Assembly (NCBI GenBank): GCA_030704615.1
Contig: CM060731.1
Coordinates: 81,530,001 to 81,594,000, forward strand
Direction of reading: 5' to 3'
DNA: 64,000 nucleotides
Origin: Takakia lepidozioides
Lineage: Eukaryota > Plantae > Bryophyta
Made by a program: the position numbers and the translations under genes. Under the pieces are notes generated by a model. That model made no database searches. It saw nothing but the letters and a program-made list of their open reading frames with translations, and was not told where the DNA came from. Shown here in pieces: positions 18,851-49,200 of the stretch (the first letter of the stretch is position 1; every line of letters starts with the position of its first letter).

Positions 18851-18940
18851 ATGCCCCCGCCATCGGAGAAGATTCACAGGCTAGTTGATGAAATCTCCAG
18901 CCTCACTCTACTTGAAGTTTCGGATCTCACAACGCTGTTG
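18851..18940 (+). pseudogene. captured fragment of organellar ribosomal protein L7/L12 (bL12) N-terminal domain
   Basis: PPSEKIHRLVDEISSLTLLEVSDLTTLL. Confidence 0.8.
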
Positions 18941-19954: not shown

Positions 19955-20147
19955 CAAGGCCTGCATCCCTCAAGACTTCATCTATTGCAACATCATCATT
20001 CCATGCCACCTCAGGAATCACTTTGTTAAAATGACGTTGAATCTTCGTGACGTTTCGCTCATCTTGATCTGTGAGCAACAAATTGAAAGCAACACCTTTG
20101 CGACCAAACCGCCCGCTTCGACCGATTCGGTGCAGATATGTCTCAGG
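19955..20147 (-). pseudogene. captured C-terminal fragment of a DEAD-box RNA helicase (DBP5/RH38-like)
   Basis: [24 protein letters not shown]...[15 protein letters not shown]...LRDAGL (motif VI plus C-terminus). Confidence 0.8.
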
Positions 20148-23465: not shown

Positions 23466-23529
23466 CTTCCTTGTCTTCCTCAATCTGGTCTCATTGCTCG
23501 CGATGGATTTACAGCTATGCCAGATGACA

Positions 23530-23801
23530 TCCTTCTTTAGGTGTGATCGGTGAACTGAAGCTGAGGGCTGGTTCATCTTCTTAGTTTTGGTGGTGGCAAG
23601 CACAACTGATAGACCCTCACCAGCTGAGGCAACAGCCACTGTCTTCTTGTTGGCAAGCCCTGAATATTTGAACGTGTTCAAGTTATACAAATTGTTCGGC
23701 TCAGAGCTGAATGTCACAGATGCATTGCCATTGCCGTTCCTCGTCACCAAAAACTTGTTGCTGTTCTTTACCAACAACCAGATCAGGTCCGAAGACGCCA
23801 T
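23530..23801 (-). pseudogene. RPL28: captured uninterrupted 5' fragment of 60S ribosomal protein L28
   Basis: MASSDLIWLLVKNSNKFLV...FSSEPNNLYNLNTFKYSGLANKKTV. Confidence 0.9.
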
Positions 23802-23904
23802 CCTTCGACCCGAGGAGGGGATCCCGCTCCAACAAAATGGACGGCTGCAGCGAAATGCAATGAGCACGAAAGAGACATCCTTCTCACTAATGGAACAAGT
23901 CCTG

Positions 23905-24197
23905 GGGTGCGTTTGCTGGAGTTTCTGGCGACTATGCCATCGTCGTGTCTCACAACCCTGACAGCGGCACTACTCGCATTAAGTTGCCGTCTGGAGCAAA
24001 GAAGGTTGTACCAAGCGGATGCCGAGCAATGGTAGGGCAGGTTGTTGGAGGGGGCCAAACAAAGAAGCCTATGCTGAATGCAGGTAATGCGTATCACAAG
24101 TACAAGGTGAAGCGCAACAGCTGGCCTAAGGTGCGGGGTGTGGCCATGAACCCTGTTGAGCATCCCCACGGAGGTGGTAACCATCAGCACATTGGAG
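23905..24197 (+). pseudogene. RPL8: captured internal fragment of 60S ribosomal protein L8 (uL2)
   Basis: [13 protein letters not shown]...KLPSGAKK...[25 protein letters not shown]. Confidence 0.92.
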
Positions 24198-25057
24198 CCC
24201 GCCAGAAAGCCCGACTTGCACAGAGACGAGCAGGAGACTCCCGCTGCAACCTGCATTGAGACAGCCGCCATAGCTCCTAAAGCCAATCCTTCAGCTTTGT
24301 ACGCCCGCTCTTGCCGCCCTCTCAGACTGTCGAAGCCCTTTGCCTTGAGGGTAGGGGGTCGGGACACATGAGGGGCTGCCCCTGTGGTGGGGGCAGTGGC
24401 AGCGATAGGTACGGGGGGCTGAAGCACCCTTGAGTGCCCAAGGCACTCAAGGAGGCGGAGGTGCTCACTAGGTGGAGCCCTGCACACCGGGATGCGGTGG
24501 GGGTGGCTTCACAAAGGGGTGGTGGTAGCTTAGCGGGACTTAGTGAGGGTGGCATAGGACTTACCTTGGGGCGGAGACCTCATGGTGGGAGTCGTGGGGA
24601 GTCTTGGGACTCATCACGGTCCATAGGGGCCGTGGTGGGTGGGCCAAGACTCACCGTGACTCATCACCGGGAGTCGAGGGTTTTCGTGGTGGTTCGCCAT
24701 AAAATGGCATGGTTGTTTGTGAAACCCCCCGCGGACAGCTACAGAAGTATATTTAGGGAGTAGTAACCTCGAGAACGGTGCAAGCCCGTTGGTGACCAAA
24801 AACTAGTGAGTAAGCGAGCGAGCCGGAAAGCGACCAAAGAGTGGGGAGCTGTTCCAGACTGCCAACTACCAAAGGGAATTCCCGCTGGGCCCAAATCGGT
24901 GGAGGGTTCTTTGGGAGATCAAAGGGGGACCGTTATGCCCCGGTGAGCAGCCGAAGCTCCAAGTTGGCCCGGCGGCCATGTTGGGAGTTAGGCACACGCA
25001 TCAAAGCGAGTAACTATGACTTGAAGGGGAGCTTACCGAAGTGAGGTGCGCGACACT

Positions 25058-25069
25058 TGGTATCAGAGC
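25058..25069 (+). promoter_or_regulatory. primer-binding site, tRNA-iMet
   Basis: TGGTATCAGAGC two bases after the 5' LTR. Confidence 0.9.
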
Positions 25070-25110
25070 TTAGAGTTCAGTACGTGATCGTCCTTGGGAT
25101 TGGCCTCATC

Positions 25111-28100
25111 ATGGGGTCGGGCAAGCCAAAGCGAAAGCGGAACGGCCCAAAAGATGATGATCCCGGTGAGCCCGATGGGGGCGACGTGTCACCGAGGCGG
25201 CCGTTTGAGGAAGCGATGCATGTTTCCGAAAACGAGGCCGCTCAAGGGCGGGAGGAATCTGAGGAGTCGGAGCCCAAGGAATCCTTGAGAGCTCCGACCG
25301 ACCAACATATGCCTCCCATGCCGGCAGCCTTTTGGGAAGGGTTGTTGGCGCAGTTTGGCGGGACGTTGAAAGACGTGTTGAAGGCGGCTAATGCCACTTC
25401 CACTAAGGCAAAGTTTAAGGTGAAGCCTAAGGAACCCGGCACCTTCGAGGGTGTCCAAAATCGGAAGGCACTCAACACCTGGCTCCTGGAGCTAGAGCAG
25501 TACTTCCGGGCGGCCAAGTTGAGTGACGAGGATCGGGTGGAAGTGGCTCCCACCTATTTGAGGGGCTATGCTCAACAATGGTGGCAGAAACGCCTTCACG
25601 ACCGAGGTCCAAGCCCGGAAACCTTGAACTGGATGGGTTCAAGGAATTGATGAAGAGACAGTTTGTGCCCCTCAACGCGTCCTGGCTTGCCCGGGACAAG
25701 ATGAGGAATTTGAAGCAAACAGATGACATTCGGGGATATGTCCAGGCTTTCAATGAGCTTTTGCTCGAAGTCGCGGACATGGCAGAACTAGAAATGGTCT
25801 TCAACTTTGTGGCGGGACTGGCCCCATGGGCCAGGCGGAAGTTGGAGGAGAAGCCACCTAAGACTTTGAACGAGGCAATTGAGAGGGCTGAATGTTTCTC
25901 GGATGTCCCTAGGGGTGAAAGACAAGGCCGTACGGAGCTGAACCACAAGAAGACCCGGCGGGAAGGTGAAGAAGTGGGATAGGCCACGCGGCGACAATGG
26001 CACGTGGAAATCGAAGGGAGGGCCTTCACACGTCAAGACGGTACCCGGTGCTTCGAAAGGAAAAGCGGGTGGAGCGGCTTATGGCGGACAGAAGACCACC
26101 TTTGATGGAGTGTGTTTCAATTGCGGGGAGCTCGGGCACATGGCCAAGAAGTGCACAAAACCTCGACAATTGAACATGACTCGGGCAACCACGGAGCTGT
26201 CAGAAGATACCATCAGTCGCTTGGTGGAAGCGGTGGTCGCCACGACTTGCAACGTAGGCAACTATTCTTGTGAGTTGTATCAGGAAACTGGCGCCCTACG
26301 TAAAGGGAGTCAGTTATTGTTTGTGGATGGGATAATATCCGGAACTAATGTGTCGTTGTTGGTGGACACAGGAGGGTCGCACTCCTTCATGACGCCGGCG
26401 GCGGCGCAAAAGTTGGGACTCTCGACAAGTGACGTGGGGGCCTCTATTGAGGTGCATTCTGCCAAAAAAGAACCACAACTGGTGACAAGGTTGGCATTTG
26501 ACGTTCCTCTTCAACTGGGGAGTTGGGGATGACCTTTTTGAGCAAATCCGGAGCGGTCATAGATGGCCGCAAGGGAGTAGTCACACTGCCATGTGGGAAT
26601 GGTGGCGAGGTCTTACGAGTGTCAGAAACGCCCAAACCCGTGGGAGGGCGAATAAGCCTTCTGTCAGCAAGGGAGTGGGCCGTGGAGGAGGCACACGAGC
26701 CCCAGTTTTTGCTCTACATTAGAGAAGTGAAGGGGAAAGGCGATGGGGAGCCGAGCCCAGATTGGATCAAGGGGATTTTGGAGAAATACCAGGATGTGAT
26801 GCCGGAGGATTTACCAAGCGGTTTGCCACCGCGAAGAGGAGTTGACCACAAGATTGAGGTGATACCGGGATCAGAACCGCCTGCCAAGGCGCCCTACCGG
26901 TTGAGCCACAGAGAGTTGGTCGAGCTGAAGACTCAGCTCAAAGATCTAATGTCAAAGGGGTACATCCGGCCGAGTAAGTCACCTTACGGAGCCCCGGTGC
27001 TATTTGCAGATAAAAAGGATGGGACGCTGCGGATGTGTGTCGATTACAGGGCTCTGAATAAGGTGACTATCAAAAACCGGTACCCTTTGCCAAGGATCGA
27101 CGACCTCTTCGATCGGTTGGCAGGAGCGAAGTATTTCAACCGGATCGACTTGCGCTCCGGCTATCATCAAATTCGGGTGGCGGAAGGGAGAGGAGAAAGA
27201 CGCGTGCAGGACAAGGTATGGTTCATATGAGTTCTTGGTGATGCCTTTTGGGCTCACCAATGCACCAGCGACATTTAGCACGCTGATGAACAGCCTTTTT
27301 CAGGATGGTTAGATGACTTTTGTGATCGTGTACATCGACGACATCTTGGTGTACTCGAAAACGAAGGAGGAGCACTTGGAGCACCTGAAAAGGGTGTTCC
27401 AAAAATTGCGGGAAGGGAAGCTATACGCCAAAGCTTCAAAGTGCGAATTCGGGGTCACGAAAGTGGGTTCTTGGGGCATGTGATTACACAGGATGGGATC
27501 AAAATGGATGACAGAAAGGTGAGGGCGATCTTGGACTGGGAGCCTCCGACTTTGGTCCCGGGAGTGCGATCCTTCCTAGGACTCGCCTCCTATTACCGGA
27601 AGTATGTGAGAAATTTCGCCAAGATCGCGGGGCCGCTGTCGGACCTTCTGTGTAAATCCAAAGTCTGGGTATGGAACACCTTTTGTGGCCAAGCTTTTGC
27701 TGAATTGAAGCAGCGGATGGCGGAAGCTCCAGTCTTGAAAATCCCGGAGTTCGATCGTCCATTCGAGATTCATACGGATGCGTCGGACTTCGCGATTGGG
27801 GGTGTACTTATGCAAGATGGACGTCCAGTGGCTTACGAAAGTAAGAAACTAAATGAAGTGGAGCGACGGTGGCCAACGCACGAAAAAAAAGAGATGAAGG
27901 CGGTGGTGCATTGCCTTGAGCTTTGGCGCCACTATGTTGGTTCCAACCCAGTGAAGGTATTCACGGACAATGTTACGGTGAAGTATTTTGCCACGCAGCC
28001 CAAGTTGTCCCCAAAACAACTTAGGTGGCAAGATACTTTGGCAGTGTTTGACGTGGATATCCAGTACAAACCGGGACGTGACAATGTGGTGGCCGATGCT

Positions 28101-29560
28101 TTAAGTAGAAAGCAGCAGCTCATGTTGGTGTACAGGGGCGAGACGGCGCTCCAAAGGAAGATCCGGAAGGCTTTCCGGAAGGATGAGCTGGCGAAGTCTG
28201 TGATGCAAGACTTGAGGAGGGGGGTTAAATCGCAGTTTCCACTTGCAAAATGGACTGCTCCGGTATAAGCAAAAGCGTCTCTACGTGCCGAAGGGAGGGA
28301 TCAGAGATAGTCTCTTGAGAGAATGCCATGATAGCCCGCTTGCGGGCCACGGCGGAGCCAAGCGCACTGCGGCACTCTTGAAGAAAGAGTATTTCTGGCC
28401 CAAACTGAGGGAGGAGGCAGAGGAGTATGTCAAGACATGCACCACATGCAACAAAACCGGAGCGAGTACAAAAAGCAAGCGGGGCTGTTACAACCCTTGC
28501 CGATTCCAGAGGGGACTTGGGAAAGCGTCTCGATGGATTTCATGACTGCTATGTCGCTGTCAAAAGGATTCGATGCAATCATGGTGGTGGTGGTGGATAG
28601 GTTCAGTAAAATGGGCCATTTCATCCCACCAAGGAGACGGCAACGGCGCAGGAGGACAAGGCGACTTTACTTCGCCCACGTCTTAAAGCATCATGGAGTC
28701 CCGAAGGATATTGTCTCGGACCGCGATCCAAAGTTTACGAGTAAATTTTGGATGACACTTTGGAAGAAGATGGGGACGAGGCTGAAGATGAGCACCGCCT
28801 TCCGACCTACGACCGACGGCCAAACGGAAAGAGTGAATTCCGTAGTGAAGCAGATCTTGCGGAATTACGTGTCGGCAGACCAATCAGACTGGGTGGAACA
28901 CTTAGACGCGGTAGAGTTCTGTTATAATAACACAGAACACTCCGCAACGGGAGTTTCCCTTTCGTATTGGTCTATGGAAAAGCACCTCTGGTGCCGACAA
29001 GTTGGGCCGCCCAGGACGTTGAGAGGAAACCGGGTAGCGGCGGTACTGGAAGAACGTGAGCGTTTGTTGAAGCTCGCAAAGTACAACATTGCCAAAGCTA
29101 GGAAACCGTATGAAAGGCAGGCGAATCAGAAGCGGAGGGGAAGTGAAGTTTGAGGCAGGCACAGAGGTCTGGTTTGAACATCAAGAATTTCCGACTACCT
29201 CCGGAAGTGAGTCCAAAGTTCGTACCTCCGTATGCGGAACCCTTTCGCATCTGGAAGGTTATGAATGAGGATGTGTATGAATTGGAGCTGCGGCAAACAG
29301 CAAGGTGCATCCAGTATTCCACGTCTCCCTTTTGAAGCCTTACTTCAAAGATGAAGCGCGTCCGAATCGGCATCAAGTGTTGCGTCCGCCACCTGTGCTG
29401 TTGGATCATGAAAATGAACGTGAGTACGAGGTGGAGGCAGTACTTAAGTCAAGGAGGTTCAAGAACCGAGAAACGGAGTATCTCGTCAAATGGAAGGGCT
29501 ATCATCATGTGGAGGCATCTTGGGTGCGTGCCTCAGAAATGGAAACGCATCCGAGGCGGT
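25111..29560 (+). pseudogene. gag-pol: gag, CCHC knuckle, protease, RT, RNase H, integrase, chromodomain; multiple frameshifts
   Basis: CFNCGELGHMAKKC; LLVDTGG; [11 protein letters not shown]; YIDD (~27330); HTDASDFAIGGVL; SDRDPKFTS; TDGQTERVN; YEVEAVL...EYLVKWKGY...SWV. Confidence 0.92.
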
Positions 29561-32500
29561 TGCAGTTTTTGAAGGGCGACCTCAAAGCGGAAGAAGCGTT
29601 GATGGGACATCCCTTGGAGCATGGGGGAGGAAATGCATGCTTAGCCCGGCTTAGCTAGCTTAGGAATCCGATTGCAAAAACTGTATTGTACAAAAAATTT
29701 GTTATAAAGGAAATGGGTTCTAAATGTTGTGCGTCCTATTTTGTTTGGAATGGTGTGATGCATGGTGTGGTTGGCTAGTGTGTAGAATGCATGCTAGCTT
29801 ACAAAAGTGGGAGAGGTAAATTGGGTTAATCGTGTGTGTGTTTACGCAGTGCCGAAATCGGGTGACTCCCATCCAAGGGGCAAGGAAACATGCACCTTCT
29901 TTGGGAGTTCACGTGCTAGTGCGCACCTGGCGCGTGCGCGTACTATAACTACGCTACCGAGGCTATAACTGCGCTACCGAGGTGGTTGCCTTGTAGTAGG
30001 AAGCTACGTGCTTCCGTTCACGTACTATAATCGTGTAGCCTCGGGACGGGAAGTCATAGTGCGGCTTCGACGTGTTCCCGTACCTCAGGCCAGCATTCCA
30101 AGACGGACCCCAATTGTAATGATTGGGGCGCACGGTTGGTTCAAGGTTCTTCCTAGTCAAGGGGGTTCGAGGTGACCCTTGTGCAAGGTAATGCCAAGCG
30201 GCATCATGAGCGATCGCAAACAATGTTGTTGCAGTAAGGCGATTCGATCCTCGGGGAGGATCATTCCTTGGCCTTGAAGTAGGCCAAGAAGAGTGCACTG
30301 GGAGGAGCTTGAGAGGCTCCACCCCTGGCCGGGACTTGGAGGAAGTCGGCCGAACTAGCTAGTGGAGAGTAGAGTCAAGTGTAGGGTTTGGTTCTTGCCA
30401 TGGGACGCCATGGTACGGAAACAAACTCCTTGATGTGGGACGCCACAACTTGGATGTTCGTTTCTACAAAATGGACAAGTCGATGAGGACATCGACTCCC
30501 GTAGGGGGTGTGTGTCGTGGCCTTTGCCTTGAGGGGCAGGGGGTCGGGACACATGAGGGGCTGCCCCTGTGGTGGGGGCAGTGGCAGCGATAGGTACGGG
30601 GGGCTGAAGCACCCTTGAGTGCCCAAGGCACTCAAGGAGGTGGAGGTGCTCACTAGGTGGAGCCCCGCACACCGGGATGCGGTGGGGGGGGCTTCACAAA
30701 AGGGTGGTGGTAGCTTAGCGGGACTTAGGGGGGTGGCATAGGACTCACCTTGGGGCGGAGACCTCGTGGTGGGAGTCGTGGGGAGTCTTGGGACTCATCA
30801 CGGTCCATAGGGGCCGTGGTGGGTGGGCCAAGACTCACCGCAACTCATCACCGGGAGTCGAGGGTTTTCGTGGTGGTTCGCCATAAAATGGCATGGTTGT
30901 TTGTGAAACCCCCGCGGACAACTACAGAAGTATATATAGGGAGTAGTAACCCCGAGAACGGTGCAAGCCCGTTGGTGACCAAAACTAGTAAGTAAGCGAG
31001 CGAGCCCGAAAGCGACCAAAGAGTGGGGAGCTGTTCCGGACTGCCAACTACCAAAGGGAATTCCCGCTGGGCCCAAATCGGTGGAGGGTTCTTTGGGAGA
31101 TCAAAGGGGGACCGTTATGCCCCGGTGAGCAGCCGAAGCTCTAAGTTGGCCCGGCGGCCAGGTTGGGAGTTAGGCGCGCGCATCAAAGCGAGTAACTATG
31201 ACTTGAAGGGGAGCTTACCGAAGTGAGGTACGCGACACAGACGCTGATAAGCATATGTAAACTCCACCTTACACAAAGAGAAAGCATGACCCAGGTGGAG
31301 AAGTCCATTCATGTGAGGATAGGGGAAGTTTCCAAAGAGCTTTTCACCTTCCTTTGAATTTTTAAATTTGAAAGGATAGTTGATAGTTGCAGAAAGGGGA
31401 AATCTACGTATCTAGATCTGGTTTTAATTTTTTGGACTGTGTTAAAAATCTATGGAATTTTTTGAGTGTGAGTGTGCCATGAAAGATCCACAATTCTGTT
31501 TCTAGAACCTGTTGTGGTCTATATGAGAGACAAATCTGTGGATGTCCTCCTTGTATGGCTGGGGGAAATGAGGACGTAATTGAAGGACAAGTCTCTTCTC
31601 TTAGCCTGTGCACACAAGGGGACAAGATTTATGTTTCCCAAGGAACTCAGACTGATTTGAATGGAGAGCAGTTGGGCGAGTTGATTGCATACTGGGAGTC
31701 AGGCATTAGCAGTAGACAACAAACTGTTGTAGTTGGCGTTGAGGGCCTCAATATTACTTTGGACAGTCAGAACTCTGTTAGAGCCAGCAGTTCTACAGCT
31801 GTAGGTGAAATACCAAAGTGGGTGAAAGCTAGGCTTGGAACATAGCCAAAGACAGCCCCAGGGACCAAGGTGTTCAGCCACAAGGCCGTGGTGTATTGGA
31901 GTAGAGGAGCAGAAGCTACACAAGTTTGTGCAATCAGACATGGTTGCAGCCGGACACGCTCTGCACAAGACAAACACGAGCGGGGGTTCATTAGCAATGA
32001 CAAGTTTGTCCTGCTTGAAGGAGATGCAATCATTCGCAATGAGGACACCTGCAACCGTCTCCAAGCTTTCGAGTTGAGAGACTGTCAGACCCTACCTTTT
32101 TTTCTTTAGTGTTCAGTGAGGGAGGGGGGGTATTGCTTGTCTCTACCTGGTAGAAAGAGGAGGAGGGTTGGTTAGAGCGAGCTACTGTAGCTTGGGACAA
32201 GGTTTAGTGGCAGGTTTCTGGACATGATATACCTCCTACACCTTACATCATGCAAAGCGAGGCACTTTGAGAGAAGTCTGGCAGTTGATAGCATAGATCA
32301 GGATTAGATCTTGCTTGGTCGGGCTTCTATTCTTCCCTCCCTCTCTTTACTATTTTCATTACTTTGTACTTGTAGTTGCCAAAGCCTCTTTTGGTGGAGG
32401 CCAGTCAGTCCGGGGTTTTGGGCTGGGATATTCTGCAGTATCAGCATTGCAGATGGATTTTGGTGTGGGGGTGTTGATGTTTTGATTCTTGTGTTTGGAT

Positions 32501-32834
32501 CCCCCCCCAACACCTGCATGCTTACTGTGCGCCATGTTGGTTTTTGTGGGCGCTTGCTTTCATAGGATTAGGCCGGATTTGATCACCGGTCAATCCTAGA
32601 GTATGCTGTCATTGGTGAGGCTAGAGTGTGACCAGCAAGACCACCAGTGTTTCTTCTATGGTGAGACTGGGTTGATGACCAGCCAACCATAGGAGTTCTT
32701 GCGATGGATGCAGGTACAGGTGCCCTGAGCCACTGGGATATATGACCCTTAAACTGCACAGGTGCCCACCGTGTCACTATTAGAATTAGTACTAGAGCCT
32801 CATAGTGTCACGTGGGGGAGGTGCACATTGTGAG

Positions 32835-34330
32835 TGTCATCACGAGTTACCCAAGGGTTTTGAGGGGAGTATGGCTACAGGCAATAATAGTGAGAGTGGG
32901 TTCACAAGACGAGGTATTCGGTTCAGACCACCTTCACCTCCACCCTAAACTAGTGCAGAATCAGACACAGACTCGGAGGCTTCATCAACAGGGTGTGCAG
33001 TTTCATTCGCCATTGTTGTGGGACGACATGGAGGAGATGTATGGAGCTACCAAGGGGCCTCGTAGGTACTCTGGAGTTGTGGGCACAATTGAGCTGGATG
33101 ACTTTATCCAGGAGTTCGACAGCTGGTGTGATTTGCAGCAGATGCGCAATCCACAGCTATTCACCCCATTCATGGCGTGGAAGGGACTGTTCTAGCATTT
33201 GGAAGGCCCGCCTATGGGACGATTACCACGAGTTCAGGCGAGGACATGAAGCAGAGATTGAGGAGTGGAGGATGTATTGGTCACCTGACTACGTCTCCAT
33301 TACTCGAGGCACGACGCGACCAGTAGCTGCATCAGCACCAATATCTCCCACTGCCAGCACTAGTAGTGGAACAAGTAGTGCCGGTACTTTTGCAGGTGGT
33401 ACTAGTTCAAAAGGTGCTACTACTCCTCCTGCCACGACTACAACACATGTGCCTACATTCAACCCGGTGGTGGAGTTCTTCCAGGAGTTGCGGAGGAACT
33501 ATCAAGGTGTACGGACAGAGAAGCTGCGAAGTTTGTAAGACTTCCAGCGCAAACCCAGTGAGAGCCTGCGAGAGGCGTACACTCGTATGAGGCGCTTGAT
33601 AAGTGTGACCAAGGGGGTTACTGAAGCTCAGGCAATCCAGTTCTGGTATGGAATTTTGGACAAGGAGCTCAGGAGAAGGGTGCGGGATGCAACCCTGTTA
33701 CAAGCAGCCCAACCCACATTAGCAGATGTGTTTCTGCTGGCTGAGCGGATTGAGTCAACATGGTGGAGGAACGAGTTGTTACCATTGGATTTGGCAAAGA
33801 CATGCTGCACGAGGCGCAGCTGCCAGCCCACAGGCACAAGGGACTGCCCAACAGCGTGGTCAGGGGGGCAAGGTTTCCCAACCCAAATTTCATGGAGCTT
33901 ACATGGGACCTCAGGTGCAGAGGCAGGCAGTAGCATCTTTTGCAAGCCAACAGCAACCAGGGGTGATATGTTGGACATGTGGAGGACCCCATGTCAAGAG
34001 AGATTTTCCCAGAGAGTGGCAAAAGGCCGGCACAAGCACAGCCTACACAGTTGCAGTGTGGCATTGTGGCAATATGGGCATGGAGATGCCCAGTGTTTAT
34101 GACTTGCATCCTGAGTTGCGCCCAGGCCAGTTCCAAGGGAACAATGGTGGCCGGGGGCGAGGGGGACCAGCCCAGAGAGGACGAGGTGGCCGGGCACGAG
34201 GTGCAGGCCAAGGGCAAGCTCAACATGGCCAAGGACGCGAAGGTTAGGGTATTGACCAAGGCATGGCCAACCGGCTTCAGCAGCTAGAGCAGAGGCTCGC
34301 TGCCATGGCTACAGCTCAAGTGGTACCGGC
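32835..34330 (+). pseudogene. gag with two CCHC-like zinc knuckles, disrupted
   Basis: FQRKPSESLREAYTRM (retrotrans_gag-like); CWTCGGPH; CGHCG-like...GHGDAQC; RGG-rich tail. Confidence 0.75.
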
Positions 34331-34759
34331 TCCCAGGCGGAATGGTCCACCTCCTGCTCCTGAGGGAGGAGATATGGGAGGCATGGGATTCATGTGCGGA
34401 GCAGCACTACCACTAGAGCAGGTGGAGTCTGCTGCAGCCGTTGCCAACACTAGCCGCCTTTACAGCTGCAGTTAGTTGGCCTGGAGAGTTGGTGGAAGGC
34501 AATGCCCATGCAGAGGATGTGCCACCTTCAGCAGAGCAAAATGACATGCATGGTACGGTGGAGTTGCCTGCCATGGTTGCTCACACTCCATTGTGGGGTA
34601 CGAGCAAGGATTTGCAGCAGGCTGCTGATGGACGGGTGCAACAAGCCTGGGTAGAGGCCTTCGTACTGTCAGGAGAAGAAAAGAGTGCGGTGATTGCACC
34701 AGGACCGCCTCAGTTGTCGCCATTGGATACCACACTTCTTGTGTGGCAGTGCCCGGATG

Positions 34760-35710
34760 AAGGCATATGCCTTCTAGACTTGTTTGGCGAGATCAGCACT
34801 GGATTGGCTGCAGTGCTGCAGGCAGGTGTACGAGTTCGACGTTACCTGTATGTGGAGAGGGATGAGACTACACGACGCGTCTCACTATGCCATGTTGCTC
34901 AGTTGGTACAGCAGTACCCTGATTTGTTACCAGTGTCTGCAGTTCGTGGATACCAACAAGCCTTGCCAGCAGACATTTCGTTGCTGGGGGGCATTTGGAG
35001 CAACATGGTTGGGATCCATTGATCTGGTAGTGGCAGGTTGGCCCTGCCAAGGCATTCATCAGCGGGCATGGCAATGGATTGCGAGACTCGAGGACGGGTC
35101 TGTTTTGGGAGATGGTGCGGGTTTTGCGCCATTTGCAGCTTCATCAAGCTATATCTCCAGCATACATCTTAGAGAATGTGCCACTGATGGGCGATTCTCG
35201 GGCCAGGGTGATGGCCAGTGTGCATCAAGTCCGGTCATGGCTTGGGTCAGCAGTGTTGCTGGATGCAGCTGCAGTGGGGTCACGGGCTCATCGTCCACGG
35301 CTATGGTGGACTAACTTGATGCCACCTGCACTGCTCAAGCGTGCATTTGATGGGGTGCAGCGGCTAGCACACCTCACAGTGGATAGCATTTGGACACAGA
35401 AAGGCAGTCTCAAACGGTGAGATACGATGACCGTTCACCTTTGGCAGTGGTCAACAGGGTGGGTCAACCGCGAGCAGCATTACCTACACTGCTCAGCTTC
35501 CCAGGATCCCATGCTTTTCGGGATGGTGGACCTGGCCTCTTGTGGGATAGCCAATTGCAACAATTAGTGGAGCCCAATGCTGACGAGCGCGGGCGATGGG
35601 TTTTTACCACTGGTACCACGGTGGTGCCATCTCTTTCTGAGGCATCACGTCGTCAGGTTTTGGGGCAAGCAATGGATCTCAATTGTTTGACCTGGATTAT
35701 CAGCTTGGCT
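34760..35710 (+). pseudogene. C5-cytosine DNA methyltransferase domain (DNMT3-like) inside the retroelement polyprotein, frameshifted
   Basis: Motif I LLDLFGEISTG, II YVERD, IV DLVVAGWPCQG, VI YILENV, VIII AHRPRLWWTNL and X RQVLGQAMD, in the canonical order. Confidence 0.9.
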
Positions 35711-36129
35711 ATGGCTGAACAACGCAGAGTACACTTCCCTTCATGGTCTCCCTGCCTACCGAGACGGTACAGGCAACAAGTGGGGGCGAGCAGGTGAGGA
35801 CACGCGTGCAGGCCGCATCCATGGCACACGTGGGAGGTGCTCGAGGTTCAGAATGAGGTTGGCAGCCAAGGCAGCAGTGATGGATCAGGTTGGGGATTTT
35901 TCTCGGTTGAGGAGGTCTCAAGGATGGGGATGATGGGGGGGCAGGGTGAGACATTGTCACTGATAGAGGAGGCAGTGGTCATTGCTCAAGAGGTTGCAGC
36001 ATAGCAACCACGGGACGCGTCTTCTACCTCTAAGCCTGCTGGACTCAAGGTTGCAGTCACGGAGGACAACTGGGAACCTGATGTTGGACCTATAGTCACC
36101 GGAGGAGAGAGACGACGTATACGGCGGTT

Positions 36130-38990
36130 CTTGAGGGCTTACGGAACTGCTTTGCCTTCAGTTTGAAGGACTTAGGAGCACTGAAGGGTCAAGAGATTCA
36201 GATTGAATTGGTACTGACACGCCAATCTTTCGGAGACCCTATAGATACAGTGACATGGAGAGGTCCTTGATTCAGATGAGAACTCAGGACCTTTGGGAGG
36301 CTGGTTTGGTGGAGCTATCTGGGGGAGAGTATGCTTCAGCCACAGTGATGCCAGCCAAGAAGGATGTTTATGGCAATTGGACGGAGAGACGTATGTGCGG
36401 TGATTACCGGCCTGTAAATCGTCAAACCAAGTCCGATAGGTATGCCATGCCGACACCAGAGGAGATCTTTGATGCCATTGGGCATGCCAAGGTCTTTAGT
36501 ACTTTGGATTTACAATCCGAATATCACCAATTGCCGATCAAGGAGGCGGATAAGTAGAAGACGGCATTCTGGGGGATCAATGAGCACGGGAAGGATTGCC
36601 TATACCAGTGGCGGTTCTTACCATTTGGGCTTAAGAACGCTCCTGCAGAGTTTCAGAGAGTCATGGACAGGATTCTAGCAGGGGTGGAGTTTGCTCGGTG
36701 CTACATAGATGACATCATCATCTTTAGTGCTATGGTGGAGGAGCATGAGAGACACCTTCAGGTGATATTTGAGCGCTTGAGGGCGCACGGATTGAAGTTA
36801 CATCCGGGGAAGTGCAAGTTTTTCCACAACCAGATTGAGTATCTGGGTCCATGATATATCCTGGAGGATTGGGGTACAACAGACTAAGGTAGAGTCCATT
36901 GCACAGATTCCACGCCCCACGATTGAGCCGAGTTTGAGCTTTCATGGGGTTAGCAAACTATTATAGACGGTTTGTTAAGGGATTTAGTGTCATTGCAAAG
37001 GCTTAACCAAAGCTGCCCAAGTGGACCACAATAAGTGGCAGTGGGAAGATGAGCAAGAACAAGCTTTTCAAGAGCTCAGGCGAGGTTGACTCGGCGTCCA
37101 TCTTGAGACGACCTATCAGGGGGCGTCCTTTTCAGCTGCATACGGATTGGAGCATGCTGGGGCTTGGAGCGGTGCTCACACAGGTGGATGATGAGGGAAG
37201 AGAGTTCGTAGTGGCTTATGCTAGCTGCTCGAACAATGCTGCCGAGTCTAAGTATAGCTCATATGAGGGAGAATGCTTAGCTGCAGTGTGGGGTGGGTGG
37301 CACACTTCAGGTGCTATCTATACGACAATCTCTTCACCCTTGTCACAGATCACCAAACCACTCAAGTGGTTGATGGAGTCAGACAAGCTTACGGGGAAGC
37401 TTGCACGGTGGGCACTCATCCTCCAAGAATATGACTTTCAGTTATGCATCGACCAGGTTTGGTCAATCGCAATGCAGATGGGTTGAGTCGCAATCCATGC
37501 CACGAGGCCAACAGGATGACACTAGAGCTCGGTGGCATGGTGAGACGGACGAGGAGATGGTGCCCGGATGGCATGCATCTGCATTTCTGTGTATATTGGC
37601 AGTGGAAGGCCAGGTTGGACCTACAACAGGGATGACTGTAGATCAAGTGTCTGAGAACCCTGAGGCCAGCAATGAGCAAGGTGGCGCCAAAGATATACAT
37701 GAGGATTTAGTTGTGTTGGGACTACCTCCGCACTGGAGACACTGCAGCCACTGTGACTGCCAAGGAGAGGGATCGGATCCTACAACGAGCCAAGAGGTTC
37801 AAGTGGGAGGGGACACACCTGCTCCGAGTGGGGGAGGATGGTCGAGTGAGGGTTGTGCCTCACCCAACACAGCGGGCATGGTTAGTGCGGCATGCCCATG
37901 AGGAGTTGGGGCATTTTGGGGTGCGACGCACTCATAGTCTACTGCAGGGGCAGTATTGGTGCGTGGTATGCACACAGAGGTGCAACAAATTTGTGGCTAG
38001 GTGCATGGTGTGACAGGGTGCGTGCTTCATTCAACGCCCCTACTCCACAATTGCACCCTCTTCCGATCATGGGATTGGGCTACAGGTGGAGTCTTGACTT
38101 CGCAGGGGCGTTGCCACTGACCATGCGTCACAAAAGTACGTTTGGTTGATGGTGGAGCACTTCTCCAAAGTGGATCGAGTTGGTTCCGTTGCCTGATAAG
38201 GCTAGTGAGGGGAGTGCGTATGCATTCTTGGGATTGTGTACTTAGCCGCTTTGGTGCTCCAGCTGAGGTACTCACGGACCAAGGGAGAGAGTTCTTGGGG
38301 GAGTTTCAGGCTTTGTGTGACAAGGCCTTGATAGACCACCGCACCACTTCTCGGGATCATCCTGAGGCCGATGGCTTGGCAGAGAGGGTTGTTCAGATAG
38401 TGAAGAGGGATTTGCGCAAGTATGGCTTGCAGAAGGGACACCTAGGAGATTGAGACCTTCAGTTACCTTGGTTAGCCATGGGCTACAGGTTCAGCAAGCA
38501 AGCATCACTTGCCTCCTTCTCACCATACTTTCTTCTCTTTGGCCGAGAGCCGGATTTGCCTGCATCCATTCATAGAGAAGCTGCTACAGTTCTCAACCTT
38601 GACGATCCGGACATGTGGGCACGTGCATGTGATCAGCGTGCAGAGTTGTTCAAGAAAGTCATGCCCATGGCTTTCGAGAACCTTGCCATTGCACAACATC
38701 GTGATACGTTGAGGTATGCTACCATACATGGTGGGGGCTATCGTCCTGGGGTTCAGAGATTTAACCCTGGTGACTATGTTTATCTGCAGCAGACTGCTCC
38801 TACAACCTTGGATGTGACTACAGGACGTACTATTTTGAGGGTTCGAGAGGTGTTGCCCTCAAGAGTCCTAATCTTGGAGGGTCGGGATGGCATGATTTGG
38901 AAGGACCATGTGCGTAATTGCGCGCCATGTCACCTTCCAAATGTTGATGGAAGGGTTGACCCAAACCTGGCAGTGGTACCTGCAAGTTTG
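36130..38990 (+). pseudogene. RT, RNase H and integrase (Ty3/gypsy order), disrupted
   Basis: RRMCGDYRPVN; FSTLDL; PFGLKNAP; CYIDD (~36700); LHTDWS..GLGAVL; HEELGHFG; VLTDQGREF; ADGLAERVV. Confidence 0.92.
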
Positions 38991-38992
38991 AG

Positions 38993-39137
38993 GTGCATGT
39001 TGTGTGGGTCTGCTAGAGGGGCAGCCACCATGCTGGTGTGTGATCGATGCTCTAGAGGCTGGCATATGGGATGTTTGACTCCACCTCTTGAGATGGTTCA
39101 TGATGGGGATTGGTTATGTCCGCATTGCATTGGATAG
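38993..39137 (+). other. PHD finger at integrase C-terminus
   Basis: CMLCGSARGAATMLVCDRCSRGWHMGCLTPPLEMVHDGDWLCPHC is a C4HC3 pattern. Confidence 0.92.
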
Positions 39138-39919
39138 TGGGAGTGGATACAACCATGGAAGGCTAACAAGAAATGCAAGGCCAAGCTACTAGGAGACCTT
39201 GAACACACGAGATCCTGGCTCAAGTTCACAGATTGCAAGACGGCGACTAACGATGGGGCTACTCTTGTACCCGGCCTCTTGGTCTATAGAGTTTGAGTAC
39301 AATAGGGACAGTGATAGAGGACTTAGTACGGCTGTGGCTATTACATCTTGTAGCTATCTGGAGTTAGAGGGACCTATCCACCAGCTAGGGGGCGATTGTG
39401 GCAGACTACTTTATTGTGCATATATGCGTGGTGTGGTTTGGACAACGATGTAGTTGTGTAGCGATATGTATGTGCACGACAGCTGTCAAGTTAAATAAAC
39501 ACAGTGTGAAACTAACTAGAATAAAGCTAGTTATTTATATTTAACACTTGGATTTAGTTCAAGTGTTAAGTCAGGTGTCAAGTTTAGTTTGACACCTGAA
39601 CCGTCTTATCTTCACGAGAGCGTCAGTCGTGCGGCTCATATCTCTCGAGTTGAGCCTGCACGACCGAGCTCCTTCACCGTTCAGAACCTGAGTGTGCTTA
39701 TGAAGGGAGGATAGGTTGTTGTGGGGTGGAGTCCCCATAGCTTGGGGTGCCCCTGGCTTGACTAATATTTTAAAGAGTGATGGTGTTGTGTTTTGTGTTT
39801 CTCTTGTTATTTGAGTTTAGTCCTTTCTTATCATTGTGGCAGACTACTTTATTGTGCATATATGCGTGGTGTGGTTTGGACAGCGATGTAGTTGTGTAGC
39901 GATATGTATGCGCACGACA

Positions 39920-42180: not shown

Positions 42181-43422
42181 CCGGCAGATGTTCCCCTTGC
42201 ACGAAATGTAGCTCTATGCTTGTGAGGAGGGCAGTACACTATAGCGCTCGGGTTTTCTTCCATGGGAGATGTGCACACATGACTGCCAGGATGGCGTTCG
42301 GGCAAGCGCCCTGGGAAAAGGGGATGCAGCGGGGAAGGAATGCAGGGCCGATTTGTTCCGAGCGGCGAAGCCTATTCACGAATCCGGGAGCCCACTATCC
42401 CAAAAATCCACTGTCAGAGTGTAATGAACCTTGTCTCCGGAATGCGGCCCCTGGCCCTTTGCGCAATAACTGCCAACGGTATGCAGTCAGAAGGTATATG
42501 ATCAGTGCAGATGCGCTGCGCAAACCAATAATTTTGTCGGCTGACAAGAAGCGTGGGGGGCAAGCGTGCAAGCACCTTCCCCATGGACAGAGGGAACTGA
42601 CAGAGGTGGAATTCCAGTGGGTCTGATTGCAAGATTGAGTGCCAGACCCTCGCTGCCAAAAGTCAACATTCAACAAAATGCAACATTGCACAAAAAGTAG
42701 AACTTTGGTTCAAAGGAGACATTTTTATTAATAATGACTGTGACAGTATGCATGCCCTCACAAACCGAAGGAAGCAAAAATATGCATGCAATCCATGCTC
42801 AGGTAAGTTGGAATTTGCTCCTGTGTTGCACTATTCTCACAAGACTGGAACCTCGATTGGCCTCTCAACAAGCTCATGACTGACAGGGTGTCGGTAGGTG
42901 AAGACAATGGATGCAGCCCATTCGCCTTTGGTGTGGTGGACAACGGTGTCATGTCCTCTGTTATATGCACCATCGTAAATCGAGACCTTTGCTGTGGAGA
43001 CTCTGTGTCCATAGGACTCATCCTCGTAGCTTATGAGAATGTCCCCATACACTGTTTGGGATGGAATCCTCTCTGGCATGTACGTACACCTGATGCAATC
43101 CTCGTAGGCCCACTGGCAGCACCTCCAATGATGTAGTAAGGCCCTGCGGCTTTTGGGGATGTTCCATGTAGGCGGATATTGCAGATCAACGATTCGCAGG
43201 CACCAAAGCCGCGCAAGCCCGTCCCCGCGAGGCTGATCGTGGAAGCCAGGAAGGTACTCAAGAGCGGACTGGTGCACCCTCCTCTGCTGAGAGTGGTCTA
43301 TCCAATCCTACAGGTATATGAAGATATCCCCTGACTTGGGCGAGAAGTCCCACGGGGTGAGATGCTTGTTTGGGCAGTTGCTGGAATCCCGGCACACCAT
43401 CCGACTATTGAGAACATCCCCC

Positions 43423-44205
43423 GGATGGAAAAACTGCGCCGAATTTCAATCCGGGGCCGGTCGGATGAAGTCCTCTCGGGGGGAGAGGCCGACACCTGGC
43501 CGACATAGATCATCCCCAGGATGGAAAAACGGCGCCGAATTTCTATCCGAGGGTGCACGGATGGAGTCGTCTCGGGGGAAGAGGTCGACACCTGGCCGAC
43601 AAATAAAATCCCTCGGATGGAAAAACGGTGCCGAATTTCCATCCGAGGCCGCACGGATGGAGTCGTCTCGGGGGGAGAGGCCGACACCTGGCCGACAAAG
43701 AACATCCCTCGGATGGAGAAACGGCGCCGAATATCCATCCGAGGCCATTCGGATGAAGTCGTCTCGGGGGGAGAGGCCGACACCTGGCCGACATAGATCA
43801 TCCCCCGGATGGAAAAATGACGCCGAATTTCCATCCGAGGCCCGTTGGATGAAGTCGTCTCGGGGGGAGGGCCGACACCTGGCCGACAAAGAACATCCCC
43901 CGGATGGAAAACAACACCGAATTTCCATCCGTGGCCGCACAGATGGAGTCGTCTCGGGGGGAGAGGCCGACACCTGGCCGACAGAAAACATCCCCCGGAT
44001 GGAAAATTGGCGCCGAATATCCATCTGAGGCCGTTCGGATGAAGTCGTCTCGGGGAAGAGGCCGACACCTGGCCGATAGAAATATCCCCCGGATGGAAAA
44101 ACGGCGCCGAATTTCCATCCGAGGCCGCCCGGATGAAGTCGTCTCGGGGGGATAGGTCGACAGATATCATCTGCAGGATGGAAAAACGGCGCCGAATATC
44201 CATCC
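43423..44205. repeat. tandem array of ~96-bp units, nine copies of a 30-bp near-palindrome
   Basis: GGATGGAAAAACGGCGCCGAATTTCCATCC at about 43423, 43519, 43615, 43711, 43807, 43902, 43997, 44091 and 44176. Confidence 0.9.
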
Positions 44206-44402
44206 GTATCGACCCTTCATCAACAATTTTTTCAGTCGTTCGTTGCATCAAGTTTTTCGCGTTTTTTGGTCTAAACAGACACTAAACTTAGAGTTTTTTG
44301 CGTGCAGGCCACTTCTTGGCACGTTATTCCCACCATTGTCGTCCGCTAGAGACAAATTCGGTGCCGGTTATCCATCCATGAGGTGAACCGAATTTTCCTG
44401 CA

Positions 44403-45030
44403 GGATGGAAATTCGGCGCCGGTTTTCCATCTTGCCGCCCTCCCGCTTACCTCCTAGATGGAAATTCGTCGCCGGTTTTCCATCCGGCCGCGCTCCCGCT
44501 TACCTACTCGATGGAAATTCGGCGCTGGTTTTCCATCCGGCCGTGCTCCGGTTTACTTGCAGGATGGAAATTCGGCGCCGGTTTTCCATCCGCCCGCTCT
44601 TCCGCTTACCTGCAGGATGGAAATTCGGCGCCGTTTTTCCATCCGGGGGATATTCTCTGTCGGCCAGGTGTCGGCCTCTCCCCCCGAGACGACTTCATCC
44701 GACCGGCCCCGGATGGAAATTCGGCGCCATTTTTCCATCCGGGGGATGTTCTCTGTCGGCCAGGTGTCGGCCTCTCCCCCCGAGACGACTTCATCCGACC
44801 GGCCCGGGATGGAAATTCAGCGCCGTTTTTCCATCCGGGGGATGTTATCTGTCGGCCAGGTTTCGGCCTCTCCCCCCGAGATGACTTCATCCGTTCGGCC
44901 TCGGATGGAAATTCGGCGCCGTTTTTCCTCCCGCTTACCTGCTGGATGGAAATTCGGCGCCGGTTTTCCATCCTGCAGCGCTCCGGTTTACCTGCAGGAT
45001 GGAAATTCGTCGCTGATTTTCCATCCGATG
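44403..45030. repeat. oppositely oriented array of the same palindrome (53-bp and 96-bp units)
   Basis: GGATGGAAATTCGGCGCCG(G/T)TTTTCCATCC about ten times; the 96-bp units are the reverse complement of the left array. Confidence 0.9.
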
Positions 45031-45613
45031 GCTCTTGGATGAGAACGTCTCGGGCGGAGGGAGGGCCACGTTGCGTCCTACTGGTGAATGATGAATTCTC
45101 GGGGGGGGGGCTGTGGCCGACCTCCATAACATTTAAGGGCGCAGTTGCGCATTAAATGTCCTCCGCCGTCAGTTTTGAACCGGATGTTCCGCACGGATTC
45201 CGCGCGTGCTTCCCGGATACGCCTTCGACACCTGATGTGACAGGTGGATGAAGTTCCACTCGAGGCCTATACGCACACATTCTGCGGGTGATTTTTTCTT
45301 TTACTGGGACTTGTGCCGCGTGGAGAAAGGCGTGGCTCTCCTGAGAGAAACCCCACATCCAGACCGCGGCGCAAACTGAAGGCTTTGTACTACGGGCGGC
45401 GTCCAACCTCTCTGGCCAAACTGAAGCTCCAGCAGGAGATCCCATTGTCTTGCTCACAGCCCGCGCCAACTAAAGCCGAGCATTCTCAGACAAGCCCCTT
45501 TCTCTTTCGCTTTGTGTAACATGTGCGGTCGTCTTCACTTTGTTTTGTTTGTTTTGGCATCTTCAGCCTGGCAGCCCTGGAAGTGTATGGTTGCATTGCA
45601 AAAGCAGGAGTTG

Positions 45614-46291: not shown

Positions 46292-49200
46292 ATGGCAGGT
46301 GAAGGGCGTCGGATGAGGACAACAGATCCGGCAATGGAGGAAGCTGATGCACATGCAGTAGGGCCCGCCCACGCAAAGAAGAAGAAGAAAGCCAAGCACA
46401 TGCAATCCCCGGCGAGAGAGCCGTCACAGGCTGCGGAGGGGGGAGTGAGCAGGGCGCGTGAGGGTGTCAGTTCGCCTCAATCAAAGGTGGTCGTCCTGGA
46501 GGCCTCCCCTGCTGCTACCCCTAGTAAGAAACAAAAGGCCCGTGAGAGGGCAAAAGAGAGGGCAAAAGAACAGGTGAGACAGAAGGCTAGTCAGGAGGCA
46601 AGAGAAAAGGCCACTGAAGAGGCCAGGGGTGTCGAAATGACAGATGCCCATGCAAGCGAGGGACGCACAGAGACGGTGGATCCCACCAAGACACCAGAAA
46701 TAGGCAGTAACACACCGGTTTCATCCTTACCGGTTACAGCATCGCGGGTGGGAGCAGCCCCCGCAATTACACATACGGTGGAGAGTGGAGGAGGGGAAAG
46801 AACACCACAAAGTGCACGGATTGTGGGAGTTCGAGGTGAAGCCGGGGAGAGGGCAGTAGAGACGGGGAGAGTGCTCAAGGTGCTTCTGCCGGTGGTTGAC
46901 CATGTTGAGGACGACAAGATGGAGCTTTCTGACCAGGATGACATCCTCCCGGACATCCCCAGGCCCCAAACCCGGAGCATACAGGCTGGATTTGGCGGTC
47001 CTGGTGGGCTGCCGGAGAACCCCCCTGCAACAGACGTCATGTCGGAGGCGGATATGAAGTTGGCCGCTGCCAAGATGTTGGAGGCAACCCACAGCAACAT
47101 TGGCAGGGTCCTGGGGGGCATGGTGTACCCGGCCAAGCTTCGGATTCCCCTTTGCCGCTTGGTTTCATTGCAGGTGGTGAGACCTACCCTCCCAGGCTGA
47201 AATTCTCTTTCCGGGAGGGATATTGAATGGGGTCTGCCGCGTTTTGCGTTTCCATTGATAACGACCACGGAGCTTCTCGTGCCCACACTTCCGATGAGGT
47301 GGACAAATGGGGTCCCCATTGGCAAAGGCGAAATGAGGAGTTCGAGAGATTGATTGCTACTGATCCTCTTTTCCAGCACTTGTCCGGAAAGATGTTTTAC
47401 GTGTGGGACGACAATCATCGCCTCCTGGCATGGATGGAGTACATAGCCAAAGCCCACCCCAACGACCTGGATTGGCATTTCGCCGTGGAGTGTGTTGTGC
47501 TGAAGGTTGCGGGGCCCAAAGATCGCAGTCTTTTCAAAGCTGCAATGGCAGACATCAACTCGTAAGTTACAATGCCTCTTGCTTTGGAACTTTGAATTTG
47601 AAACAGTCATTTCATTGCCAATCGTCATATTTGTTGCAAATTCTCATTTCAGTATTGTTTAATGGAAATGTGGCATTGCAGGGTGACTGAGAATGCCTTC
47701 ATTGCCACCAACTTGTCCCATATGCTCTTCCGAGTGAAGGATGTCGGGAAGCAGGGGGTGCAAGAGTTTGCCAATTCGCTCAGTGCCAACCTCCTGCGCA
47801 AGTCGGAGGCAAAGGCAGACAGAACCTAGTATAGGCTGAACATGGACGCGATGGTGGACTACATATTTCGGGTAAAGCTCCTGACTGTTTTGTTCAGCTT
47901 ATCTGTCTCCCCTCCCCCAATAGAAGAAAAAGTGTTGACCAGGATTTCTAATCTTATGTGCGCATTCTTGACAAACCAAAATTCAGCAGGATTTGGCACA
48001 TGCGCGGAGGTTCTATATGGAGTCAGAGGAGAAGAAACTAACCCTCCTGGCACTGGAATCGTATCTCAAAGCTGCGGAGGCGAAGGCCCGCATAAAGTAC
48101 AAGTCGCGGATGGTACAGTACGTAGCTATAGCTGATCCCGCCCTTGGTGCCGACTTTCTGGTGGAGGTGGGGAAGCACTACTCCCGCACTCTGAAGCCCA
48201 CGATGACATTGGAGAAACTGCATCGTCTAGCCACATCCTGTGTGGATGCAACAGAAAAGGTCGTACATTCTTAACCAAATTGTCGTGGCAACAATTCGTT
48301 TTTGTGGTGTTTGGCGCTTACTAATATGCTGGGTGGTTGGACAGACCCGGTGGCTCCAAATCTGGAATGGTTCCCAAAGTACAAGGGACATGTGGAGCTT
48401 CCCCAAACCCGACAAACTGTCTGACCCCACATTCGACATGTGGATGAACCGCATGACATGGTGGTTTCAGGTACTTTCCCACGCTTCATTTGCCAGTTCT
48501 ACGCTTGTACCGGGTGGATTTACTGTATTTGTTGAGGAAAGCAGTCTGATGGAGAATTTGCGCAGGTGACGACGAATGCGCAAGAACAGCTTGACACACA
48601 AGCACATCAGTTCAAGCTGGAGATTTCTGGTGAAGCAGAGAGCCTACGCGACTATGTGACGAGGTACTTTCTGCTCTACAAAACCGACCTATTCTTTCGA
48701 GAGATACCCCATGCCCGCCAGAGCCACGAGTTCACCGATCAGCCAAACGCGGACAAAGCGGCAATGCGCCTTCTGTACAGGTACATACGCGATGCCTTTC
48801 TTTTTAGTCCCTACATTTCCAGGATGTAAGAGGCCTTATGTGGCGCTTGAAAATTAGTTGTGAAGAAGTCCTTGGAAAAATGGCGCCGAATTTCCAGTTC
48901 AGGGCCCCGAAAATGGCTAAGTCCCTGGGGTGGCTGGCACTGAAATTGGAAATTCGGCGCCATTTTTCCAGTTCCGGGCCCAGTCAGTTATGGGACTTAG
49001 CCATTTTCGGCCCTAACCTAGGAAAATGGCGCCAAATTTCCAGTTCAGGGCCCCAAAAATGGCTAAGTCCCTGGGGTGGCTGGCACCGAAACTGGAAATT
49101 CGGCGCCATTTTTCCAGTTCCGGGCCCAGTCAGTTATGGGACTTAGCCATTTTCGGCCCCAACCTGGGAAAATGGCGCCGAATTTCCAGTTCAGGGCCCC

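Follow-up and report, generated by a model that had tools for sequence, protein, structure and literature searches.

Does the cytosine methyltransferase (DNMT) signature found in the genome of the bryophyte Takakia lepidozioides belong to a retrotransposon or to a host gene and, if to the former, what might such an enzyme do for the element that carries it? We addressed this question in a stretch of 64,000 nucleotides (hereafter, the window; positions 81,530,001 to 81,594,000 of contig CM060731.1, assembly GCA_030704615.1), to which all coordinates below refer. The signature lies in what we read, with moderate confidence, as a decayed copy of a high-copy Ty3/Gypsy family whose DNMT ends the Gag-protease open reading frame (ORF), is likely made at the level of the capsid protein and likely methylates the element's own cDNA before insertion. 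The coding features of this copy (copy 1) and the two other copies in the window are listed below, A and B being the terminal repeats and j the junction between B1 and A2.

31,382–39,919, + strand: copy 1, a Gypsy-DNMT3-PHD element truncated at its 5′ end (no 5′ A) and with many frameshifts and stops (blastn against copy 2; tblastn with relatives)
33,028–34,440, + strand: decayed gag, matching residues 1–415 and then 771 onward of the relative P0019
34,756–35,731, + strand: DNMT3-like C5-methyltransferase domain, motifs I–X unpermuted, at least 4 frame breaks (tblastn with relatives)
36,002–36,010, + strand: TAG CAA CCA, the stop codon at which the Gag-PR-DNMT ORF terminates, sharing the frame of the pol start
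36,207–37,444, + strand: reverse transcriptase (RT) and RNase H (RH), broken, with YIDD within 36,699–36,713 (tblastn)
38,009–38,990, + strand: DDE integrase (INT), broken, with triad motifs at 38,087, 38,268 and 38,373 (tblastn; rve in relatives)
38,994–39,131, + strand: PHD finger at the end of pol (PF00628, E 2.4e-10)
13,800–21,206, − strand: copy 2, with both ends (A1-coding-B1-j-A2-B2), TG..CA termini and the 4-bp duplication AGTT
22,263–22,650, − strand: copy 3, a fragment with most of A1 and the same 12-nt primer site as copy 2

Copy 1 reads gag, (deleted protease), DNMT, stop, RT, RNase H, DDE integrase and PHD finger, and the order is complete in its relatives, as gag-CCHC-PR-DNMT. 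Copy 1 has lost about 330 codons at ~34,440, the protease among them; one RNA-labelled contig ends loose at 34,442. The earlier note on this DNA had placed the methyltransferase inside the retrotransposon polyprotein: the domain does end the Gag-protease ORF, but a stop precedes RT and there is no continuous pol ORF. The split repeats, the primer site and the PHD finger had escaped that note. Copy 2 is 92–94% identical to copy 1 (blastn) and has an internal deletion equivalent to 33,650–37,294, such that DNMT and RT are absent. Its leader of ~2.1 kb (18,722–20,846, − strand) contains an internal A run, is mostly without counterpart in the truncated copy 1, and its single long ORF had no Pfam match. 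Beside the end of copy 2, the segment 13,199–13,819 (− strand) showed a weak SWIM zinc finger match (E 0.0014, under the cut-off), and copy 2 may lie within a MULE-like remnant.

The rest of the window contains other repeats. A separate, ordinary Ty3/Gypsy LTR element (24,328–31,238, + strand; gag-CCHC-PR-RT-RH-INT, no DNMT) has LTRs of ~725 bp that are 96.5% alike, a 5-bp duplication (CAGAC) and a primer site starting TGGTATCAGAGC, which we take to be of the tRNA-Met type; its RT clusters with those of elements from rice and Tanacetum, and a partial LTR of it, 88% identical, occupies 1,443–1,997 (− strand). An ORF adjoining the LTR insertion (23,265–23,969, − strand) has a plant-like ribosomal eL28 match of ~95 residues, scoring 90–99 bits to six entries, presumably from plant ribosomes, and at most 66 to the rest. 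A 96-bp unit, arrayed in both orientations, forms together with a related 53-bp unit a large inverted repeat (43,411–44,162 and 44,397–45,068) that is possibly a foldback or MULE-type element; a 146-bp array at 48,873–49,377 is related to them, and mixed arrays of 75–107-bp repeats span 52,058–53,965.

Judged by its sequence, the C5-methyltransferase domain is real and copy 1 itself is dead. Its motifs follow the unpermuted order I-IV-VI-VIII-IX-X, with motif I at 34,774, the PC of motif IV within 35,018–35,050, the ENV of motif VI at 35,163, motif VIII (AHRPRLWWTNL) at 35,286, an IX-like EPNADER at 35,570 and motif X at 35,660. They are spread over three frames, with breaks at ~34,990, ~35,062 and ~35,391, and there is a local frame slip at ~35,590–35,605. 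In an alignment of 251 DNMT domains from transposable elements (TEs), copy 1 retains the catalytic C, E and R-x-R and carries, in motif I, a substitution at a glycine-loop position kept in 239 of the 251 relatives. The claim that the motifs stand in order with catalytic residues intact was therefore borne out for the order and for C, E and R-x-R, but not for a single reading frame or for the motif I loop. The Pfam search that had been suggested as a check gave a mixed answer: the best piece, 110 amino acids encoded by 35,064–35,393, reached 18.7 bits against a cut-off of 22, four other pieces of the window matched no Pfam family, and the stop-to-stop ORFs 34,417–35,019 and 34,778–35,311 yielded 0 families, so that the DNMT was missed. 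Of 483 candidates, the same 110-residue piece retrieved 63 proteins, the best at E 1.7e-45 and most of them with PF00145.

The catalytic residues are nearly invariant across the 251 TE domains (C in 250, E in 251, and the two arginines of R-x-R in 247 and 250). The residue preceding the catalytic Cys is Glu in 124 domains and Pro in 110, and many algal TE DNMTs thus have EC in place of the canonical PC.

The type of enzyme was assessed on an intact relative (P0008) that is 70% identical to the DNMT domain of the window. Compared by sequence with solved structures, it matched DNMT3A first (48 bits), with DRM2 at 24 bits and M.HhaI at 19. Its AlphaFold model (pLDDT 93) superposed on DNMT3A with a Z-score of 29.2 (rmsd 2.5, 273 residues), as compared with 23–26 for bacterial enzymes, and DNMT3A/B were the top solved-structure matches both by sequence and by fold. 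Together with the unpermuted motif order, which is permuted in DRM, these matches uphold the earlier assignment as DNMT3-like and not DRM-like. Host plant DNMT3 has the same DNMT3-type catalytic domain, but it is a free-standing gene with a C-terminal DUF3444, its hallmark domain (Yaari et al. 2019, PMC6453930). A Pfam search for DUF3444 on the relatives of our element found none, the neighbours being gag, protease and RT instead. On the evidence of sequence and modelled fold, the domain of copy 1 is of the DNMT3 type and is neither a host plant DNMT3 nor a DRM. TE ORFs of this kind are prone to be miscounted as host DNMT3 genes.

The family is very abundant and DNMT-bearing, as indicated by the contig numbers of one run (X1), in which 16,139 contigs matched the DNMT region (34,250–36,150) and 5,465 the 3′ end; two runs guessed to be RNA gave 11 and 0 contigs, which speaks neither for nor against expression. 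Of the 63 protein matches, 26 bore the name of an organism, in every case Marchantia, Riccia, Calypogeia or Sphagnum. A profile search recovered 428 clusters at E ≤ 1e-30, and two layouts were found among 149 new representatives: DNMT after the protease and before RT, with Klebsormidium nitens (GAQ93235) and Closterium as named carriers, and DNMT between RNase H and integrase, the commonest, with Haematococcus, Hariotina and a Tetradesmus transcriptome as named carriers by tree position or Pfam content. In a chlorophyte-like contig (L074:828–5792), a single ORF of 1,654 amino acids encodes RT-RH-DNMT-INT, directly followed by PHD. A Coleochaete transcript encodes a close RT-RH-INT-PHD. Vascular plants were absent from the named matches, a weak negative given that the searches were word-based, and 28 pattern matches in viral contigs included 0 relatives of the element.

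In an RT-RH tree of 130 sequences, the window grouped with Marchantia and Calypogeia (support 0.89–0.96), and a clade with support 0.999 united this group, Klebsormidium, Closterium and the after-RNase-H group, whose members included 25 unnamed sequences sampled from a pool of 125. DNMT trees, midpoint-rooted and containing only TE domains (the matches listed included no host DNMT3 or DRM), also split the two layouts, both with 131 domains and with 47, the after-RNase-H group having an SH-aLRT of 99.8 in the latter; the placement of K. nitens P0177 shifts between the two. The simplest reading would be one old acquisition of the DNMT, the domain having moved later. The earlier proposal that the lineage extends from charophytes into land plants gained liverworts and Sphagnum among the named matches, but it was too narrow, as chlorophytes also carry the DNMT clade. 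Just outside the DNMT3 clade, three Gypsy RT relatives (P0405, P0422 and P0427) carry PF05869, which we take to be a Dam-type methyltransferase family, and two of them also have PHD. They are possibly the DAM-LTRs of a 2026 preprint.

A one-off capture of a host DNMT3 absent from other copies, or a host gene nested by chance in copy 1, would undo this picture, as the earlier note had recognized. Copy 2 lacks the DNMT, as such a capture would predict, and host DNMT3 has no place in trees that hold TE domains only. However, RT is wholly missing from copy 2 as well, and gag in part, so that deletion explains the missing DNMT; thousands of contigs carry the domain, and relatives occur in liverworts, Sphagnum and algae. 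Moreover, the window domain shares 70% identity with TE-linked domains from Marchantia and Calypogeia, and 32–40% with those from algae, whereas the intact relative reaches only those 48 bits against DNMT3A, and the relatives have no DUF3444. We consider a capture of this sort extremely improbable.

Given that copy 1 belongs to a family, we asked how the family has treated its methyltransferase. Between the window DNMT and the metagenome loci, synonymous sites are near saturation, with median pS 0.72, pN 0.20 and omega 0.10 (maximum 0.18; 62 loci, 6 saturated). The corresponding omega was 0.075 for RT (37 loci, 23 saturated), 0.077 for integrase (21 loci, 6 saturated) and 0.25 for the linker. 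Inside the metagenome family omega rose to 0.57, in keeping with the decay of copies once they have inserted. These sequence comparisons indicate that the DNMT is under purifying selection between families, comparable to that on RT and integrase.

The stop between DNMT and RT bears on the amount of enzyme made. In a survey of 53 sequences with a pol start (47 unique segments, mostly from one peat-moss-like family and representing about three independent lineages), a stop occurs at the same site in all 47 (46 by pattern, 1 by eye), as TAG in 33 and TAA in 14. CAA directly follows in 45 of them. The context in the window fits UAG-CAR-YYA, the readthrough motif of tobamoviruses (PMC3542737), a motif present exactly in just 3 of the 47. 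Marchantia and Calypogeia proteins terminate shortly after the DNMT, and the K. nitens annotation places DNMT and RT in neighbouring genes. We think it probable that the stop is leaky and that readthrough yields pol. Alternatively, pol might be translated by reinitiation, or its message might be a distinct or spliced RNA. An in-frame ATG two codons past the stop in 43 of the 47 segments would suit reinitiation, and the annotation of several pol-only relatives begins at a Met shortly before the conserved pol start; yet the window copy has no Met from the stop to the conserved pol start, three loci (L030, L036 and L070) have GTG at the ATG site, and the in-frame stop with its CAA 3′ context is retained across all three lineages. 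This alternative therefore seems rather unlikely to us. Under readthrough, the DNMT would be made at capsid-protein levels because the likely leaky stop separates it from RT. Such bulk expression is not universal, since P0384 (Closterium) and P0091 encode DNMT and RT in a single ORF with no stop.

The start of reverse transcription can be approached through two short stretches associated with repeat A.

20,835–20,846, − strand: primer-site position following A1 in copy 2, whose 12 nt pair without mismatch with 21,052–21,041 in A1
39,638–39,649, + strand: candidate self-primer stretch inside A2 of copy 1

The 11–12 nt that follow A1 are complementary to a stretch within A, with 12 of 12 pairs in copies 2 and 3. 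In the metagenome family, 20 loci were examined, 3 of which had no anchor; 12 of the 17 scorable loci form 10–11 of 11 Watson-Crick pairs, and the other 5 pair at 9/11 or fewer. This sequence is not the same in the two families, and pairing across families is mostly 5/11, versus 11/11 in both window copies, which, together with the pairing within each family, points to compensatory change, albeit between only two families. The primer-site helix closes the predicted 5′ RNA (z −4.4 and −2.3), and a TATA box lies ~31 nt upstream of the primer stretch in the metagenome family, with a weak TATA-like stretch in that of the window. In the family of locus L056 (repeat A, 1,679–2,017), the primer stretch also forms one arm of a local hairpin, the other being the sequence immediately before it, and that upstream arm precedes the predicted RNA start. 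The complementarity makes it very probable that the element self-primes its reverse transcription as in Tf1. The Tf1/Tj1 arrangement has been described (PMC4600332), and self-priming in plants has been predicted for Tcn1 and TAR (PMC6317226). As in Tf1, Sushi and Tcn1, the primer site lies right after the repeat and is complementary to a stretch inside it, but those elements are chromoviruses with ordinary LTRs (PMC4600332, PMC6317226), whereas ours has permuted repeats and encodes a DNMT; in the place of a chromodomain, a PHD finger follows its integrase.

The repeats themselves have an A-coding-B-A-B, DIRS-like layout with TG..CA ends, of which copy 1 preserves the 3′ part.

39,387–39,394, + strand: purine-rich tract right before B1, likely the polypurine tract, also found in relatives
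39,395–39,481, + strand: repeat B1, 87 bp, ending in CA, 97.7% identical to B2
39,480–39,485, + strand: j, the palindrome CA-GC-TG between B1 and A2, whose halves match both ends of integrated copies
39,484–39,833, + strand: repeat A2, 350 bp, starting with TG and ending in CA
39,833–39,919, + strand: repeat B2, the 3′ end of the element (..GACA)

The 3′ limit is supported by 39 contigs that diverge into unlike flanks at 39,919. The six copies with both ends all have 4-bp target duplications and TG..CA ends (one start decayed), from which it follows that a DDE integrase inserted them. The purine tract before B1 and the CA that ends A indicate, in turn, that B-j-A is the working LTR. Opening a two-LTR circle at j yields exactly the observed A-coding-B-A-B layout and is consistent with it; the junction is CAGCTG in four of eight cases, CAATTG in two and one change away in the remaining two. 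A palindromic circle junction is cut by the foamy virus integrase (PMC1180852). The A2/B2 junction of one locus (L035) contains filler DNA together with remnants of the purine tract, the kind of trace that end joining would produce. Two loci (L031 and L036) have a single B only, which fits a one-LTR circle, later recombination or assembly collapse, and self-alignment detected no B-A-B repeat in L074 or in 4 long-tailed loci of bryophyte type.

These structures lead us to favour, as the probable route, integration via an end-joined circle cut at j. The split ends might also arise without a ligated circle, either from an extra template switch giving a permuted linear cDNA or from transcription through B2. 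The precision of the A2/B2 junction in most copies speaks for this second route, as do the repeat pairs: the circle model predicts both pairs to be identical at insertion, but in copy 2 the two B repeats are identical and 15 of 346 columns differ between the A repeats, and B pairs are likewise more alike than A pairs in L056 and L071. Against it, B-j-A is bracketed by the purine tract and the primer site like a normal LTR, j is palindromic despite a two-base change, and one junction contains filler DNA. We regard the route without a circle as the less likely of the two. LTR finders that expect paired terminal repeats will miss these elements.

Integration through an end-joined circle can be placed in a complete cycle. 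Transcription would start inside A1, and the first 11–12 nt of the RNA, complementary to the site after A1, would pair with it and prime reverse transcription. Translation would produce mostly Gag-PR-DNMT, with RT-RH-INT-PHD arising by occasional readthrough of the TAG/TAA-CAA stop. Flanked by the purine tract on the B side and by the primer site on the A side, B-j-A would serve as LTR, giving a BjA-coding-BjA cDNA. The ends of this cDNA would then be joined and cut at j, producing the A-coding-BjA-B structure seen in the copies, with TG..CA ends and a 4-bp duplication. Meanwhile, packaged DNMT may put 5mC on the cDNA, so that it would already be marked on entering a methylated genome; the PHD finger may read histones at the target.

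That the substrate of the DNMT is the element's own cDNA is the option to which we lean, by analogy and from the Gag-PR fusion, which would place the enzyme together with the cDNA. The domain might instead be conserved for another job: methylating the target site or the integrated copy, dampening the element, or binding nucleic acid in the particle. Selection on the DNMT does not name its substrate, de Mendoza et al. (PMC5890265) listed self-limiting and chromatin roles as open, and the Klebsormidium enzyme was inactive in yeast in their work. We also considered CpG depletion as a mark of self-methylation and dropped it: depletion in metagenome elements (0.49–0.59) is not stronger than in their flanks (0.20–0.62), and this absence of an element-specific CpG loss counts in favour of another job. 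In a single comparison at codon 3-1 junctions, the CpG value was 0.35 for copy 1 versus 0.78 for the neighbouring DNMT-free element. A role in binding only sits poorly with catalytic residues nearly invariant over 251 domains. Overall, we hold these other jobs to be a less likely explanation than methylation of the cDNA, with roughly one chance in a few of being right.

Among known systems, the closest is KnitGypsy-Dnmt3 of Klebsormidium nitens (de Mendoza et al. 2018, PMC5890265), which shares with our element Gypsy RT, RNase H and integrase, an intronless unpermuted DNMT3-like domain, purifying selection (Ka/Ks <0.2) and DIRS-like repeats. The K. nitens protein GAQ93235 (PR-DNMT) is 34% identical to the window DNMT domain, and the gene next to it (KFL_013780010) encodes an RT that shares 49% identity with the Marchantia relative that served as query. 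By these resemblances, the element is of the KnitGypsy-Dnmt3 kind, extended to land plants. It differs in its land-plant hosts, very high copy number and conserved DNMT-RT stop; the DNMT of KnitGypsy-Dnmt3 was described as lying in the Pol ORF, though the annotation of K. nitens likewise separates DNMT from RT, and the accessible text of that paper makes no mention of a self-priming site, a palindromic junction, 4-bp duplications or the chlorophyte after-RNase-H form (PMC5890265). The enzyme produced no methylation in yeast, a result that the authors called inconclusive, whereas the SymbioDIRS-Dnmt3 enzymes of Symbiodinium methylate CG de novo (PMC5890265). SymbioDIRS elements also combine a TE-borne cytosine methyltransferase with the A-coding-B-A-B layout, but they have a tyrosine recombinase (PMC5890265) where ours has an rve DDE integrase and 4-bp duplications. 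EpiLTR elements likewise bear a cytosine methyltransferase in a retrotransposon, with DNMTs sister to DNMT4 and with DAM and chromodomains (bioRxiv 10.64898/2026.05.21.726589). In the portions available, later papers cite the KnitGypsy-Dnmt3 kind solely as streptophyte or charophyte (PMC12344493; bioRxiv 10.64898/2026.05.21.726589). Our literature search, outside of which lay most subscription journals and Repbase, found no report of the family in land plants or chlorophytes and, within the same limit on journals, none of the DNMT-RT stop, the self-priming site or the split-end mechanism for it.

Taken at its broadest, the evidence would accommodate one ancient Gypsy lineage of all green plants, spanning chlorophytes, liverworts and peat mosses, that would combine a DNMT3 writer and a PHD reader, prime itself without tRNA and integrate normally from a circle, with a DDE integrase opening j; in bryophytes, a leaky stop would bring the DNMT to Gag level, so that copies may arrive methylated. 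This wider scenario is doubtful as a whole. The structure of the ends also hints at an LTR element for which integration from a circle may be the rule. Why retrotransposons retain a silencing enzyme has been a question since 2018, for which the only plant-side example that we found in print is an alga. Since annotated Marchantia Gag-protease-DNMT ORFs with intact catalytic residues exist and Marchantia methylation mutants release transposons (10.1101/363937), the role of the enzyme can be tested in a land plant.
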